Positions 50,369 to 56,960 of a stretch of 64,000 nt of DNA are shown in pieces; positions within the stretch are counted from its first letter, which is position 1; each line of letters opens with the position of its first letter. The stretch comes from Escherichia phage LYE-01: the sequence record PQ303785.1; one strand, 5' to 3'. The translations under genes and the position numbers were made by a program. The notes under the pieces are model-generated. The model was not told the DNA's origin and ran no database searches. It worked only from the letters and a program-made list of their open reading frames with translations.

Positions 50369-51025
50369 TTATTTAGCCCTTCCTAATATTCTGGCCGCCT
50401 GAGAACATATTGATTCAAGGCGGTCATTACTTATATGATCATTTCTATACCAGTACATGGTTATCGTTCCAGCATAGATATTATCCAAATTAAAATATGG
50501 ACAACTGTACATGTAGTTTATTTCGGGAGTAGGCTTTTTAGTTGGTAAAAAAGCAAATTTTGAGTTGGAATAATAATGACGTCCATTTAAATGAACTGTA
50601 TATTCATCCATAGTTTTATCAACAGGATATCCTCCAAGTGATTTTTCGCTTATTGTTGAAGGTAATTTTCCTTCATATGCTATAATATCAACAAAATAGT
50701 TTAAGTTTTTAGGGCGGAAAGAATACACCGCACTAAAGTCTGCCTCAGATGATATATGAACTATCTGGAGTTGTTCCAGGGCGACAGATTCAAAGCGTGC
50801 ATTTCTTTCCTTTTCAATAATTTCACTGTATGTTTCATACTTTGATTGCTTATAGTACTCAAAGAAACTATCTCCCCTATACCAAACAATCGCCATTATA
50901 AACAAAAGAATTACGACAGCTACTCGGGAAGCAAGAACCTTCCCGGTAGCGTTATCTTTGAACAAGCGATCTAGAACACCCAACAGAATATCAGAGGGCG
51001 AAAATGATATTCTAGGTGCTGCCAT
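50369..51025 (-). CDS. t: holin T (218 aa)
   Basis: Begins MAAPRISFSPSDILLGVLDRLFKDNATGKVLASR; single TM; 218 aa as T4 gpt; convergent with asiA. Confidence 0.9.
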   Translation of the reverse strand: MAAPRISFSPSDILLGVLDRLFKDNATGKVLASRVAVVILLFIMAIVWYRGDSFFEYYKQSKYETYSEIIEKERNARFESVALEQLQIVHISSEADFSAVYSFRPKNLNYFVDIIAYEGKLPSTISEKSLGGYPVDKTMDEYTVHLNGRHYYSNSKFAFLPTKKPTPEINYMYSCPYFNLDNIYAGTITMYWYRNDHISNDRLESICSQAARILGRAK

Positions 51026-51055: not shown

Positions 51056-51835
51056 TTATACTCTTGGACCATATATTGCTCCAACGTTTTGCCATGTCGG
51101 TGTAGACCCTATGACGGCATAACCAGCAGCACCACCGTTATATTCTGTACCGTTCCCATGAATATTACATCTACCTCCTGCTGAGCCAACTTCACCGCCA
51201 TTCCCGCCTGTATATACCCAAAGAGACCCCTCACCGACAGATCCTGCACCCGGAGCGGAAATGGTGCCAGCGGTTGCACCAGCACCCATATGAGAGGAAG
51301 ACCCGCCAGCACCGAATGGGCGACCACCACCACCACCAAATGATAGTCTACCGTAGTTACCGCCGCCGCCACCGCCACCGCCGCCTGCAATAGCTCCACC
51401 ATTATTAATTCTTAGTCTCCCACCAATATCGTTTTGAATACAATGACCTCCAGCTGAGCCAGGACTATTGCTACCGCCATTACCGCCACGTCCATACATC
51501 GTTACGCCGTGTATATTCAACTGAACATATTCATTCGGTGTATCTCCGTACATGAAGAATAAAGGAACATCTTTAGAATATGATACTAAATCTCCAGTGA
51601 TATTAAACACTATAGGTGTACTACCTGCCTCAAAACATCTATCTCGGAACCATTGACCATTGAAGTTATGGTCTGCTCCAAGTGTATGAATAATTTCTCT
51701 TGAGCGACCTGCAAATTGACTCATCCAGCAAGGAACACCCAATCTTAATTGACCAGCTGCTTGACTCATCCAGCGCTGACCCGTTTCATTTACGGCTGAA
51801 CTTCCAATCCAGCCAGGAACTCCAACTACTGCCAT
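51056..51835 (-). CDS. 38: gp38 long tail fiber tip adhesin, T2/T6 type with glycine-rich motifs (259 aa)
   Basis: Poly-Gly blocks ([38 protein letters not shown]) between conserved segments; downstream of gene 37; unlike 183-aa T4 gp38. Confidence 0.8.
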
Positions 51836-51850
51836 AATTTATACTCCAAA

Positions 51851-51865
51851 GGGGGCATTTCCCCC
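51851..51865 (-). repeat. GGGGG-AAATG-CCCCC hairpin between genes 37 and 38
   Basis: Perfect 5-bp G/C stem; no strong U-run. Confidence 0.35.
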
Positions 51866-51871
51866 TTGTTG

Positions 51872-54800
51872 TTAGAATTTAAAATATTTACTAATTTTGC
51901 GAGCAATTTTAGTAAAGAGAGGCGTTTTCAATTCTTTAATTTCTTCACTCATTTCCTGAATAGCCTTAATTAAAAGAGCATTCACTGTAGAGTTAGAAAT
52001 TGTTAAAATCTCTTCTGGGTTATCAAGAGATCCGACATTAGAAGTGCTAACAGCTTCCGGTAAAATTTCTTGTAAATCCTGCGCGATAATACCAATCTCA
52101 TGTGCGATGACTTCTCGGTCAGAAAGAGACTTAACTTTATCGTAGGTTTTAACTTTTAGTTTATTTACCTTATCTACCGCATTTTCTTCGTAGTCTTCAA
52201 CGTTAATTTTCAGACGACGGTCGGAACGAATATAAACATCGTTACAGTAAACCGACGCACTAGATGTGAAATCGCCATTTGCAGCCCATGAATACCAGCC
52301 GCCTTTGTTCATATGCATCATTACGGTAGCTTGACCACCGCCAGCATGAACACCCATTGCCGCAAGATGATCAACACCCCAATGAGTTGCTTTCCAAATT
52401 GAATATGCTCGGGTTTGTGAATCCTGACAATCTAAGAGAATACCAGCAGGACGGTTGCGCCAGTCATCCCAAGCACCACCAAAAACATCACCACGGATAA
52501 GAGCGTATTCACTATTATAAGGAACTTGCTCTCCCGCTTTAATCATTGCACCCTGGAAGTGATGACTAAATGAACCCCCATGATTATTTCGTATATGTAA
52601 AATACCCTCATCTGTAGCCCAGATAACAGCCTTTTCTGCATCGCTATCATCTCTAAACCAGATATGGCGAGCACCAGTTGAGTTTTTGATGGTTATTCCG
52701 CTAGGTCCATGCACGGTCAAAGAACCAGCAACATCAAACATCAAACTGTTATCTGTCCTGCGTTCAGCATAGAAGTGATAACCTTTTGAATCGCCGACTT
52801 CCAATACTGCCGCGCGACCAACTTCTGAATTTCCCCAATTGTTGATAGAGAATCGTTCAGAGCTATTATTCATCTGATTTAGGTATAATGTACCATCAGT
52901 GAATGTTTCGCCAAAGAAACGAGTTTTAATTGCACCTGTCGCTAAAGTACGTTCAGTGGAAAAATGGGCGCCTTGACTATCTTCTAACTGGATGATGTTA
53001 TCACGAGCGTTATTGCTATCACCCCAATGGTTAAATTTAAAATAATCTCGTGATCCTAAACGTCCGGCGTCAAAAGTCATCAAGCCTTTCATGTTAATAT
53101 CACCGCCGACCAGAACGTTATCCGGGAAGTTAACTGTACCATCAGCATTAAATCTTGATGTATGGCCCTGTGTTCCATCTTCTTTGATATGGTGTATCAC
53201 GAATGTACCTGAATTAATTTCAGTACCTAAAGACCAAACTGCTTTACCTTGAAGGTATTTTTGCTTAACAATCGGATAATATTTGTTTACAGCATCATCA
53301 TCGATTTCCTGGAAAATAGGAGCCGCTTGAACATATTGAATATCATAACCACCAGCGCCAGCGCCATGACCAACAAATTTAATATAGCCGTTCGCAGCGA
53401 ACGTATTGTAACTTGATTGTAAATCTGGAATAGTAACTTTACCGGTATCTAAAGCCATACTAAACGGGCGAAGTGGACCGATATCGCCATGTTTACCTTC
53501 ACCATAAGCAGTTGGAATAATATGAAGACTGCCTTCTGAACGTCTAAAAATAGCTCCATAATCTGCGTTCCAAATGCGAAGACCATTTACAGCATTTGTC
53601 GCGATTTCACCGGCTGCGCTGATTGTACCGTCAAATGTAGCATTTTTTACTACTGTAAAGTTTTCATTAACAATCTGGGTGCCATTTATAACCGATTCGA
53701 TTTTACCCGCAGTTGTTCGTTGAATATAATGCATCCATCCAATATCATCAGAAATTTCCATGACATTTTTACGGGTGCCTTCACTTGGATTAGTAAAAGT
53801 ATTTCCCCAAACAGCTATATACATGTTATCAACGGAGCTTTGACCCATGGTATAGCCTTTAAACATTAAAGTTGAATTATTATTTCTACCATCAATATTA
53901 ACCGAACCACCAATAACGTCAATATTGCCTGGAGTAACTAACAAACCGCCATGAGTATTAATGTTTGTGGTACCCTTACCGCGGAAATAGTGATGATAGT
54001 TACCGCCTTGATAATATCCTAAAAGAGTTTGACCGTCACCATACGCGTTATTATCATGGTAAGTAACAACAGTGGCTAATGCATAGTTTTCTGTCGGTGG
54101 CGTTGTCATAAGAATCCCATCCGGAGAATAACCCATAACCATTTTTCTAAGGCTTTGTGTTTCCGCAGGACCGTAAATGAAAGTTCTTGTTCCGTTGTTT
54201 ACTGCATGAAAATATCCGTCCTGATGCCATTTAAATCCGGTATCATTATCGCCAATAGCAATAGAACCTTTACCTAAGGCTGAATATGTCATAGGACTTG
54301 ATTCCATACCTACTGCAATTGAATGGCCTGCTTGAAGCCCACCGGAATAAGAAAATGACAACATGTAATCAGTAGGGGTTGAACCAGAATACCAACTGAT
54401 GCCGTTATTTTCACAAATTTCATGGAGCATTGCGGCCGCTGGGTCGGTACGTACAATGCGCAAATAGTTTTTATCTGTGTCAGAATTATTATTTGCTAAT
54501 GAAGATATATCATAATCGCCCGTCTTCTTCCCATCTGTAATAACTTTATCGGTCAGAATTTGTGGAGACGAAATAGATTTCCATGCTGATACTTCAGGTG
54601 AAGTAAATAGGCCACTGCCTGAAAATGCATAGGTGCTTTCATCACCAGCGGCGTAGTCTTGAACCCTGATATTAAGTACTTGTGTAGTTAATCCATCATT
54701 AGCCGGGGCATAAATTATTCCGCGTTCGCGGTTATTGCCATCGAAAAAACGAACATGCGCTGTACCTGAACTTTTTGTAATAAGTTCTCCGCCCTCAGTC

Positions 54801-55114
54801 ATAATCTGCCCGGCGGCAATAATATCGCGAGTTACTCGAGCAATACCAGTTAAATTAAAATTACCTGTCTGAGTGAAAGCGCCATTTAAAGTATAATCAC
54901 CAGTTTGATTATAGTTTCCTATATGAATAACATTCCCGTCAATGCTACCGCCCTTAGCAAAACCAAGATCAATGATATTTCCTTGGTCGTCTTTAGTAAA
55001 AAGTACGCGGTCTTTTAAGTTTATAGCCAATTCACCTTCGGCTAATACTGAAGCGGCAGGACGTGCTCCTGCAGTTTTGCTTCTTTTAAATTGTATTTGT
55101 TTTAAAGTAGCCAT
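51872..55114 (-). CDS. 37: gp37 long tail fiber distal subunit (1080 aa) with C-terminal intramolecular-chaperone-like domain
   Basis: N-terminus MATLKQIQFKRSK...AEGELAINLKDR as T4 gp37; C-terminal ~110 aa resembles self-cleaving chaperone domains of T2-type fibers. Confidence 0.85.
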   Translation of the reverse strand: MATLKQIQFKRSKTAGARPAASVLAEGELAINLKDRVLFTKDDQGNIIDLGFAKGGSIDGNVIHIGNYNQTGDYTLNGAFTQTGNFNLTGIARVTRDIIAAGQIMTEGGELITKSSGTAHVRFFDGNNRERGIIYAPANDGLTTQVLNIRVQDYAAGDESTYAFSGSGLFTSPEVSAWKSISSPQILTDKVITDGKKTGDYDISSLANNNSDTDKNYLRIVRTDPAAAMLHEICENNGISWYSGSTPTDYMLSFSYSGGLQAGHSIAVGMESSPMTYSALGKGSIAIGDNDTGFKWHQDGYFHAVNNGTRTFIYGPAETQSLRKMVMGYSPDGILMTTPPTENYALATVVTYHDNNAYGDGQTLLGYYQGGNYHHYFRGKGTTNINTHGGLLVTPGNIDVIGGSVNIDGRNNNSTLMFKGYTMGQSSVDNMYIAVWGNTFTNPSEGTRKNVMEISDDIGWMHYIQRTTAGKIESVINGTQIVNENFTVVKNATFDGTISAAGEIATNAVNGLRIWNADYGAIFRRSEGSLHIIPTAYGEGKHGDIGPLRPFSMALDTGKVTIPDLQSSYNTFAANGYIKFVGHGAGAGGYDIQYVQAAPIFQEIDDDAVNKYYPIVKQKYLQGKAVWSLGTEINSGTFVIHHIKEDGTQGHTSRFNADGTVNFPDNVLVGGDINMKGLMTFDAGRLGSRDYFKFNHWGDSNNARDNIIQLEDSQGAHFSTERTLATGAIKTRFFGETFTDGTLYLNQMNNSSERFSINNWGNSEVGRAAVLEVGDSKGYHFYAERRTDNSLMFDVAGSLTVHGPSGITIKNSTGARHIWFRDDSDAEKAVIWATDEGILHIRNNHGGSFSHHFQGAMIKAGEQVPYNSEYALIRGDVFGGAWDDWRNRPAGILLDCQDSQTRAYSIWKATHWGVDHLAAMGVHAGGGQATVMMHMNKGGWYSWAANGDFTSSASVYCNDVYIRSDRRLKINVEDYEENAVDKVNKLKVKTYDKVKSLSDREVIAHEIGIIAQDLQEILPEAVSTSNVGSLDNPEEILTISNSTVNALLIKAIQEMSEEIKELKTPLFTKIARKISKYFKF

Positions 55115-55122
55115 AAGTCCTC

Positions 55123-55779
55123 TTAATAATAGCCGAAATCTTGAACAGAATCCTTAATAACAATTTGATCAAATCGTGGAACATGTGAAGGTTGAGATGC
55201 AGGATTCTGCGAAAAAAGGTTTGGCGCAGTTAAATTTCCTGTCATAGTATCTCCAGAGCGTAATACCCTAGAGTTTGCGTTTGCTGTAACAATATTTATT
55301 GCTCCATCAACATAATCTTTCCGTGTAAGGTCATAATTATTTACTGGAGATAATGAAGTTGCGCGTATTTGTGATGCTTCAATTACACCCTTTGAGCTAA
55401 TATCTCCATTTCGCGTGTTAATTACTACAGTTCTACCCGCTGAACCCTGTGATGATTTAAAACCAATACCATACCACGAAACAATATCCATATTTGTAGT
55501 ATCATATGTGGCATTATCACCAGGACCAGCAAAAATACCGTTGTCACCTGACCCTGCACCAGGAACAGTCATTCCTTTATTAAAAATTACTTTATTTAAA
55601 TACGTACCACCGTTAGCTTTAGAAACGAAATCGTTATCAGCAGCTTGTGGCTTATTATATTCTGAATATATTTTAAATGATTTATAGAGTACATCGTCAC
55701 CGGCTGGATTCAATGGAAAATTTCCTTGATGCCAAATGACAGAGCCTCCAGTTGTTGAACCTACTTTTAAATCAGCCAT
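55123..55779 (-). CDS. 36: gp36 long tail fiber hinge-proximal small distal subunit (218 aa)
   Basis: Size, order 34-35-36-37, late promoter upstream. Confidence 0.8.
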   Translation of the reverse strand: MADLKVGSTTGGSVIWHQGNFPLNPAGDDVLYKSFKIYSEYNKPQAADNDFVSKANGGTYLNKVIFNKGMTVPGAGSGDNGIFAGPGDNATYDTTNMDIVSWYGIGFKSSQGSAGRTVVINTRNGDISSKGVIEASQIRATSLSPVNNYDLTRKDYVDGAINIVTANANSRVLRSGDTMTGNLTAPNLFSQNPASQPSHVPRFDQIVIKDSVQDFGYY

Positions 55780-55802: not shown

Positions 55803-55810
55803 TATTTATA
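55803..55810 (-). promoter_or_regulatory. T4 late promoter TATAAATA for gene 36
   Basis: Exact reverse complement TATTTATA on the plus strand, 24 nt upstream of gene 36 ATG. Confidence 0.6.
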
Positions 55811-55811
55811 A

Positions 55812-55837
55812 AGAAAAAGGGAACCCGAAGGCTCCCT
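55812..55837 (-). terminator. hairpin GGGAGCC-UUCG-GGUUCCC plus U-run after gene 35
   Basis: Stem with UUCG loop then TTTTTCTTT on the minus strand. Confidence 0.5.
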
Positions 55838-55841
55838 CAAT

Positions 55842-56960
55842 TTATACTTCTCTAAATTCTTGCCCAAATACTTTACCAGCTTTAGACGATGCTTGCGTAG
55901 GAAGTACCATTATATCCGGAGGTGAAGCAGATTCACAGATATAATTAACACGAATGCCGTTGATACCAAATTCAGCAGGTTTCGAAATACTTCCATTTCT
56001 TGACACTTCCGAAAAGCTTAAATTCCTCATGCCACCTTGACCAGCTTGAGCAGTTCTTTGTGCATATATCGTAAATCCTACTGCATTTTCTGGAATAACT
56101 ACATAATCTTCCTTTAATTCCCATGACCCAGCTTGTCCAGTAAACTCAGCATGTGTTGAAGAAATATATCCATTTGATGCATCATAAAAACGAATGGATA
56201 TATTTGTAGTTCCAAGATCAAGTAAATCAGCATCAGCATATAACTGTGCTTTAAGATAAAGAACATCACCAGGAATTAAATTATAATCAGATAGTTTACT
56301 TATAGCAGCTGAAGTTGGTAATCGCGCAATTTCGTTATTAGTTCCACCAACTGCTGACATAAATTGCTCGACACTTTCATATGTTCTTTTAGGAAATCCT
56401 GTAGCTCCGACGTCTTCTAAACTATCAAATACAACATCTAAAATAGTTTGATAGTCATCTGTGCTTTTTCTATTACTTAGTTTAACATGTTCCAATGCAA
56501 TAGCTCTTTTAGAAGAAGTATAAAAGGCAGCATATGATACGTCAAATCTTGACAATACAGAATCAGATGGAAAAGCAGACGTTCCTGCGGTTCTTATCCA
56601 AGATACTACCTCAGGAGGAAAATTAACTTTTCCGTTAGTTAATATAGCAACAAGTCTATTATTCGTCAAAGAGTTCATGAAACCAACAAAAGCAGCTGAT
56701 GTAGTATCATTTGAAGCCGAAAAAGCATATGACTTACTATCAACTAATGCTCCTGTAGAAGGGTCAAAAACTCTTAAATGAAGTCCTGCGCTAAATGTTT
56801 GACTTCCAACAGGATTATCCTGAAATTTAACGTATGGTCCTTCTGCAGTAGAAAGCGGGCAAGAACCCGCTATACTTATTTTATATCTTACTGAATTGCT
56901 TTCCGATAAAAATGGCGTTTGGACATATCCTTGTCCAAACTCTGCCATAAATTTTTCCAT
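55842..56960 (-). CDS. 35: gp35 long tail fiber hinge protein (372 aa)
   Basis: 372 aa as T4 gp35; synteny. Confidence 0.8.
   Translation of the reverse strand: MEKFMAEFGQGYVQTPFLSESNSVRYKISIAGSCPLSTAEGPYVKFQDNPVGSQTFSAGLHLRVFDPSTGALVDSKSYAFSASNDTTSAAFVGFMNSLTNNRLVAILTNGKVNFPPEVVSWIRTAGTSAFPSDSVLSRFDVSYAAFYTSSKRAIALEHVKLSNRKSTDDYQTILDVVFDSLEDVGATGFPKRTYESVEQFMSAVGGTNNEIARLPTSAAISKLSDYNLIPGDVLYLKAQLYADADLLDLGTTNISIRFYDASNGYISSTHAEFTGQAGSWELKEDYVVIPENAVGFTIYAQRTAQAGQGGMRNLSFSEVSRNGSISKPAEFGINGIRVNYICESASPPDIMVLPTQASSKAGKVFGQEFREV

Follow-up and report, generated by a model that had tools for sequence, protein, structure and literature searches.

The distal tip of the long tail fibre of Escherichia phage LYE-01 (sequence record PQ303785.1) is almost certainly an ordinary, well-studied adhesin-type tip of a T4-like coliphage, and sequence comparisons allow the receptor class of its adhesin, gp38, to be assigned with high confidence to the outer-membrane protein OmpA. 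The window analysed here is a stretch of 64,000 nucleotides from this phage, and the region in question, 51056-52250 on the minus strand, encodes all of gp38 together with the last 126 residues of gp37, the distal subunit of the long tail fibre. An original prediction, made from the DNA letters without database searches, had described this region as a host-range module of the T2 type, comprised of a glycine-rich gp38 adhesin and a gp37 protein ending in a chaperone-like domain. The family, the fold, the self-cleavage of gp37 and the receptor of an identical protein have all been published already, and there is no new biology in the feature. Nevertheless, no other single feature at present predicts the outer-membrane receptor of T-even phages, and hence their host range, as well as the sequence of gp38 does, and a confident OmpA call is useful for annotation, for adhesin engineering and for the design of phage cocktails in which shared receptors are avoided.

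Across the 24 kb that were compared around the locus, the window has approximately 98% DNA identity to Enterobacteria phage vB_EcoM_IME340 (MH051916), a Tequatrovirus, and the 1195 nucleotides of 51056-52250 are 99.7% identical. By these comparisons LYE-01 is a Tequatrovirus, and a sibling isolate of IME340 rather than the same genome. The genes, domains, motifs and promoter elements described below all lie on the minus strand, on which the order from 5' to 3' is g35, g36, g37, g38 and the holin gene t, as in a T-even late-gene block. Gene 38 is directly downstream of gene 37 and upstream of t, and the order g36-g37-g38-t is the same in T2 and T6. The present analysis shows to which families the proteins belong, the cleavage motif conserved in gp37, the pattern of glycine-rich and hypervariable segments and the identity with IME340 gp38; the OmpA receptor, the cleavage of the S16 and T2 proteins and the polyglycine fold come from published work on identical or near-identical proteins.

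The gp38 adhesin and its receptor class

The open reading frame of gene 38 (51056-51835, with the stop codon at 51056-51058) encodes 259 residues and matches two Pfam families. The first is GP38 (PF05268), at 5e-69 and 232.9 bits against a cut-off of 25, with the entire profile covered (positions 1-218 of 218), and the other is Gp38_N (PF21721), at 1.1e-20 and 73.8 bits against a cut-off of 25, over residues 1-42. The protein also matches PHROG 2056 (2e-108) and two Protein Data Bank (PDB) structures, namely the receptor-binding domain of PP01 gp38 (9V85; 5e-78) and S16 gp38 (6F45_D; 3e-53 over residues 5-256), with three tryptophans and the long glycine run aligned in the latter case. By these matches gp38 is a full-length member of the gp38 tail-fibre adhesin family of the T2/T6/S16 type, which bears out the glycine-rich adhesin of 259 residues that had been predicted.

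Three regions can be delineated in the protein. The attachment domain (residues 1-45; 51701-51835), which is of the T6/Ox2 subtype and corresponds to Gp38_N, contains the 'prong' tryptophans W9, W22 and W37. These coincide with tryptophans of S16 gp38 in the alignment to 6F45_D, and in S16 the three 'prongs' fit into pockets at the gp37 trimer's end (PMC6851490). The conserved middle region (residues 46-113; 51497-51700) aligns with 6F45_D as the counterpart of the β-helix domain of S16. The remainder (residues 114-259; 51059-51496) is the specificity domain, in which, under the scheme of Trojet et al., five glycine-rich motifs (GRMs) alternate with four hypervariable segments (HVSs). Its GC content of 53% exceeds the 35% of the window, with a peak of 0.547 at 51150-51449. 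Glycine accounts for 65 of the 259 residues of gp38 (25%). The longest run lies in GRM2 (residues 151-159; 51359-51385) and is encoded by GGC and GGT codons; it is exactly nine glycines long, as had been foreseen, although its position had been put at about 51361-51390. When the residues of gp38 were shuffled with its own 25% glycine kept, a run of at least nine glycines arose in 105 of 200,000 shuffles. The run aligns with the third polyglycine-II (PGII) helix of S16 gp38, 151-GGGGGGGG-158. GRM3 (residues 167-178; 51302-51337) includes a run of five glycines (residues 167-171; 51323-51337) followed by R172. From the alignments to 6F45_D and 9V85 only, we infer that this half of gp38 would adopt the PGII 'sandwich' fold.

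The adhesins compared were those of Ox2, T2, T6, AR1, RB5, CM8, EV240, Ac3, FL12, FL18 and FL20, with K3 and M1 left out, and the conservation of individual segments was calculated as mean pairwise identity in an alignment of ten of them (LYE-01, FL12, FL20, FL18, Ac3, RB5, T6, Ox2, AR1 and T2). In this alignment the middle region reaches 83%, and GRM1, GRM2 and GRM3 reach 95%, 90% and 89%, with GRM4-5 at 68-72%. HVS1 to HVS4 stand at 56%, 33%, 45% and 45%. Hence, the proposed separation of variable segments by glycine motifs is borne out by GRM1-3 at 89-95% against HVS1-4 at 33-56%. The segments were placed by alignment: HVS1 at residues 121-128 (GSNSPGSA; 51452-51475), HVS2 at residues 160-166 (NYGRLSF; 51338-51358), HVS3 at residues 179-208 (51212-51301) and HVS4 at residues 222-234 (51134-51172).

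Two incidental features of the glycine-coding DNA may be mentioned here. The DNA that codes for the runs consists of trinucleotide repeats that are nearly perfect, (ACC)5.3 at 51323-51338 and (CCG)8.7 at 51360-51385, the latter with 82% matches, and the long run varies among homologues, with seven glycines in T2 and Ox2, eight in AR1 and nine in LYE-01 and T6; this variation in length is compatible with in-frame slippage. A 97-residue open reading frame in another frame of the same strand inside g38 (51109-51402) was rejected as a gene and regarded as a by-product of the GGN-rich DNA.

The identity of gp38 with proteins from phages of established specificity provides the most direct indication of its receptor. 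It is identical to IME340 gp38 at 259 of 259 positions and also 100% identical to that of vB_EcoM_SP1, and the specificity domains of JE01, HMD-9 and UoN_LDJ77_1 are identical to its own. A mutant resistant to IME340 carried mutations in ompA, and a ΔompA strain was not infected. Furthermore, adsorption of IME340 was lost on the ΔompA strain and restored by complementation, and strains with deletions of other receptors, tsx included, were still infected (PMC6499177).

The wider comparison points the same way. The specificity domain has 94% identity to its counterparts in EV240 and FL12, 88% to that of FL20 and 84-85% to that of FL18, all from OmpA binders, and 78-82% to those of the Tsx binders T6, RB5 and CM8. 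The receptor of EV240 was found to be OmpA by random barcode transposon-site sequencing (RB-TnSeq; preprint 10.64898/2026.04.02.716166), and the adhesins of FL12, FL20 and FL18 are those that Lutz et al. 2025 class as OmpA 'type 2'. In all OmpA binders compared (LYE-01, IME340, EV240, FL12, FL20 and FL18) HVS2 is five residues shorter, in the form N[YR]G[RK]L., and HVS3 is longer by four residues, which in LYE-01 are the insertion GEGS; neither the deletion nor the insertion is present in any of the three Tsx binders. HVS1 does not discriminate, being nearly the same in the type 2 and Tsx groups (FL20 alone differs, by one residue). The adhesin of LYE-01 therefore clusters with the OmpA-dependent adhesins and has the same two indels, as expected of type 2. 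The residues R172, A189 and A253, which have been named as type 2 contact residues, with R172 as an OmpA-contact residue (PMC12032242), are all present. Finally, when the gp38 of CM8 was exchanged from HVS2 onward, this was sufficient to switch the phage from Tsx to OmpA (preprint 10.64898/2026.04.02.716166).

From the identity with IME340 gp38, the type 2 clustering, the HVS2 and HVS3 indels and the CM8 exchange, we therefore place gp38 in the OmpA receptor class with high confidence, and the contact itself is probably made by HVS2-4. The original prediction had suggested that gp38 determines receptor specificity through its variable segments, with which the OmpA-type pattern in HVS2 and HVS3 and the switch of CM8 agree. 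It had also proposed to settle the class by alignment with the adhesins of T2, T6, Ox2 and K3, and this was done with T2, T6 and Ox2, whereas K3 was not in the alignment. Within the OmpA class, the IME340-type allele of gp38 carried by LYE-01 has several residues that the other OmpA binders compared lack: Y161 in HVS2, W206-V207 in HVS3, seen in no other allele of the set, and I225 in HVS4. It is possible, though somewhat doubtful, that these confer a different preference among OmpA variants and a different E. coli host range from those of FL12, EV240 and FL20, in which case the two indels would mark the minimal path from Tsx to OmpA.

The processed end of gp37 and assembly of the tip

Gene 37 (51872-55114) encodes a gp37 of 1080 residues with matches to Pfam Peptidase_S74 and Gp34_trimer and to PHROG 1699 (E=0); it has the same length as that of IME340 and differs from it by the single substitution Q900H. 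Residues 964-1022 match Peptidase_S74 (PF13884, 'Chaperone of endosialidase') at 2.9e-14 and 53.5 bits, where the cut-off is 22, over positions 1-57 of the 58 in the profile. Moreover, the last 242 residues match S16 gp37 (6F45_A; 5.6e-11), and they show a weak match to the MYRF ICA domain (7DC3; 0.008). The resemblance of the end of gp37 to a self-cleaving intramolecular chaperone had been proposed from the letters for the last ~110 residues; the present analysis supports this and extends the segment to 117 residues. The search for a conserved cleavage serine, suggested at the same time, led to Ser964, with Lys969 five residues further on, both within the motif DVYIR^SDRRLK. The codon of Ser964 is TCC (52223-52225), and this residue is the predicted nucleophile and the first residue of the released fragment; Lys969 (AAA; 52208-52210) is the predicted general base of a Ser-Lys dyad.

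We predict cleavage between R963 and S964, because the motif is conserved in T2, T6, Ox2 and IME340, because it matches the S16 and fPS sites, and because the catalytic pair of T5 pb1 is likewise a serine and a lysine. The sequence VYIRSDxRLK is invariant in the gp37 proteins of LYE-01, IME340, T2, T6 and Ox2, and it aligns with the experimentally defined site of S16. Cleavage of the S16 protein takes place at DLNVS^SDRRIKK; the sequence in the fPS phages is DVYIR^SDGRLKI (PMC7917993). Catalysis in T5 pb1 depends on Ser1264 and Lys1269, of which the serine is released together with the chaperone, and a Ser/Lys mechanism is described for K1F as well (PMC4690869). The gp37 proteins of T2 and T6 undergo proteolytic trimming and are then capped by gp38 (PMC3157838). 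On the basis of this homology, the chaperone would comprise residues 964-1080 (51875-52225; 13.3 kDa), and the predicted mature gp37 residues 1-963 (52226-55114; 104.7 kDa), ending in ...SVYCNDVYIR.

Taken together with the features of gp38, this suggests the following course of assembly. The gp37 protein would be made as a precursor of 1080 residues, whose last 117 act as an intramolecular chaperone driving trimerisation and the folding of a β-helical tip. After the tip has folded, the R963-S964 bond would be cut by the Ser964/Lys969 dyad, and the chaperone would depart to expose a blunt trimer end. A single gp38 could then dock on this end by means of its N-terminal three-helix attachment domain, with W9, W22 and W37 as the prongs. 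Its C-terminal half would fold into the PGII sandwich, made up of the glycine-rich motifs with their Gly9 and Gly5 runs, and present the hypervariable segments as distal loops. These loops would bind the extracellular loops of E. coli OmpA and thereby set the host range.

Elsewhere in gp37 there are three copies of a motif of ~30 residues (WGN/WGD ... E..D..G.HF...R), at residues ~436-470, 689-722 and 757-786 (~52757-53807). In the BLASTP comparison with T4 gp37, residues 689-743 and 757-786 align to one and the same T4 segment. These copies resemble the repeated conserved motifs that are thought to promote recombination in the fibre genes of T-even phages.

Alternative explanations and known systems

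Three other explanations of the tip were weighed against an OmpA-binding adhesin on a processed gp37. Since the gene for gp38 lies where gene 38 lies in T4, between g37 and t, the product might have been an assembly chaperone of the T4 type, which by published accounts has no place in the virion, and gp37 itself would then bind the receptor. The likeness to T4 gp38 is limited to this gene position: the T4 protein has 183 residues and is unrelated in sequence, and direct BLASTP between the two gave E=2, the best alignment being of 12 residues, which rules out a T4-type identity. An alignment of gp38 with the T4-type chaperone rather than with the adhesins had been named as fatal to the adhesin assignment, and the comparison gave no such result. 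That gp38 strongly matches both the adhesin family and the solved S16 and PP01 adhesins also speaks against the T4-type explanation, as does gp37, which is 35% identical to T4 gp37 over its N-terminal ~640 residues and has no significant similarity to it at the C-terminus, where the S74 chaperone stands in place of the T4 needle domain. The chaperone explanation can accordingly be given next to no weight. A T6-like adhesin binding Tsx rather than OmpA is slightly less remote, yet very improbable. In its favour, the first 45 residues have 98% identity to their counterparts in T6 and RB5, T6, RB5 and CM8 have the very same HVS1 and core as LYE-01, the specificity domain retains the 78-82% identity given above, and Lutz et al. 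derive the type 2 OmpA adhesins from Tsx binders. Indeed, the gp38 proteins of T6, RB5 and CM8 have the same subtype of attachment domain and gp37 end, the same HVS1 and the Gly9 run, with an overall identity of 84-89%. However, in these proteins HVS2 is five residues longer (YYSPF[SP]QMRLT), HVS3 is four residues shorter and the receptor is Tsx. The HVS2 deletion and HVS3 insertion are common to LYE-01 and all five proven OmpA binders and occur in 0 of 3 Tsx binders; IME340, whose gp38 is identical, requires OmpA and can infect a Δtsx strain; and exchange from HVS2 onward turns Tsx specificity into OmpA specificity.

A further alternative concerns gp37: the S74-like domain might be kept in the mature fibre, as a non-cleaving remnant or as a permanent tip, with gp38 bound elsewhere. 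The sequence upstream of the site does differ from those of S16, T2 and T6, and the cleavage of LYE-01 gp37 is a prediction. Against retention stand the intact serine and +5 lysine in a motif that is invariant across T2, T6 and Ox2 and aligned to the proven S16 site, the exact match to the fPS phages in DVYIR, the five residues that precede the site, the documented processing of T2 and T6 gp37 and the end-to-end coverage of the Peptidase_S74 profile. We consider retention as improbable as Tsx binding. Several observations nevertheless tell against the assignment of an OmpA-binding adhesin on a self-cleaved gp37. The cleavage rests on conservation of the motif, and the Arg and Asp sensor residues of T5 could not be mapped by sequence onto gp37 upstream of the site, because the ~100 residues before it are very divergent between phages. 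A single-sequence AlphaFold2 model of gp38, made without an alignment, had a predicted local distance difference test score (pLDDT) of 29.3 and a predicted template modelling score (pTM) of 0.17, values too low for it to serve as a check of the polyglycine fold. The DNA identity of the window to IME340 is ~98% and not 100%, gp37 differs by Q900H, and the receptor data come from IME340 rather than LYE-01. In addition, the private loop residues Y161, W206-V207 and I225 may alter the preference among OmpA loop variants.

Among the systems already described, IME340 is the closest to the OmpA-binding tip proposed here, with an identical gp38, a gp37 of the same length, the same gene order and a receptor established by experiment as OmpA. 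The gp37(3)-gp38 tip of S16 (PDB: 6F45) shares the cleaved S74 chaperone end (...S^SDRRIK), the tryptophan prongs, the β-helix, the PGII sandwich and the position of the glycine run, the fold in LYE-01 being taken from alignment. It differs in its HVS loops, in its receptor, Salmonella OmpC, in the length of gp38 (249 residues) and in a largely different gp37 sequence before the cleavage site. The type 2 gp38 proteins of EV240, FL12, FL20 and FL18 agree with that of LYE-01 in the short HVS2, the insertion in HVS3 and the residues R172, A189 and A253. The attachment-domain subtype differs from that of LYE-01 in FL12, where it is T2-like, and in FL18, where it is K3-like, and FL20 belongs to a Krischvirus genome. 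T2 has the same design, in that an adhesin sits on a gp37 that has been processed, and its cleavage motif is VYIRSDIRLK. However, its gp38 is 50% identical, its junction is of another subtype, its glycine run has seven residues against nine, its gp37 has 1341 residues, and its receptors are FadL and OmpF, in contrast to the OmpA class found here. The K1F endosialidase, the L-shaped fibre pb1 of T5 and the MYRF ICA domain resemble gp37, as predicted here, in that their C-terminal folding domain cleaves itself and has a serine nucleophile and a lysine at +5. In these three, cleavage leaves a receptor-binding tip, whereas in gp37 of LYE-01 it would lay bare a surface on which a separate adhesin docks.

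The gp37-gp38 junction and the surrounding late genes

The last 45 residues of gp37 (51872-52010), the intergenic stem-loop and the first 45 residues of gp38 (51701-51835) co-vary between phages as a linkage block. Three subtypes of the junction can be distinguished: T6-like (LYE-01, T6, Ox2 and RB5), T2-like (T2 and FL12) and K3-like (Ac3, AR1 and FL18). The junction of LYE-01 falls in the T6/Ox2 subtype with 91-98% identity, its attachment domain being 98% identical to those of T6, Ox2 and RB5. The OmpA type 2 specificity domain is joined to all three junction subtypes, and occurs in three genera, Tequatrovirus, Mosigvirus and, as FL20, Krischvirus. These combinations of junction and specificity domain match the published picture of cassette exchange. 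Hence, the label 'T2-type' that the module had been given is apt for the generic adhesin-bearing design, but not for the T6-subtype junction, the 50% identity of gp38 to that of T2, or the receptor class, which is OmpA and not FadL/OmpF.

Between the stop codon of g37 and the ribosome-binding site of g38 (GGAG; 51844-51847) lies a stem-loop, GGGGG-AAAUG-CCCCC (51851-51865), with a fold energy of -17.3 kcal/mol (z = -2.4). Stems of different sequence, often with a UUCG tetraloop, occur at the same position in T2, T6, Ox2, Ac3, AR1 and FL18; that of T2 and FL12 is AGAGGGC-UUCG-GCCCUCU. The retention of a stem despite changes in its sequence suggests that the mRNA has a conserved element here, with a role in its stability, its processing or in translational coupling.

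As to transcription, a consensus scan found an exact match to the T4-type late-promoter consensus, TATAAATA, 5' of g36 (55803-55810). This is the nearest exact match to g38, and none was found between g37 and g38. A scan for σ70 promoters that might be dedicated to g38 gave 23 sites, which is not above the shuffled control (17.9 ± 4.3). The sequence TATAAATT just before the ATG of g38, one mismatch from the late consensus, was dismissed as too near the start codon to serve this gene, and it is not conserved in T6 and RB5. The g35-g36 gap also holds a UUCG hairpin that resembles a terminator and has a T-run (55838-55817), and the late-promoter consensus comes directly after it. We infer that 55803-55838 is likely to be a transcript boundary and the start of a g36-g37-g38 late unit. 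Searches of the whole window with Rfam, at the gathering threshold, and with ARAGORN returned no RNA elements and no tRNAs.

The flanking genes were delineated as open reading frames. The holin gene t (50369-51025) matches Pfam Phage_holin_T (PF11031; 8e-118), and g36 (55123-55779) matches Phage_T4_gp36. Further upstream, g35 (55842-56960) encodes the hinge protein gp35, residues 59-127 of which match the Pfam family ILEI (PF15711, 'interleukin-like EMT inducer') at 32.6 bits against a cut-off of 27 (E=1.2e-7). This match represents the 'GG' domain, which is reported to be common to phage gp35 and to eukaryotic proteins of the FAM3/POMGnT1 type.

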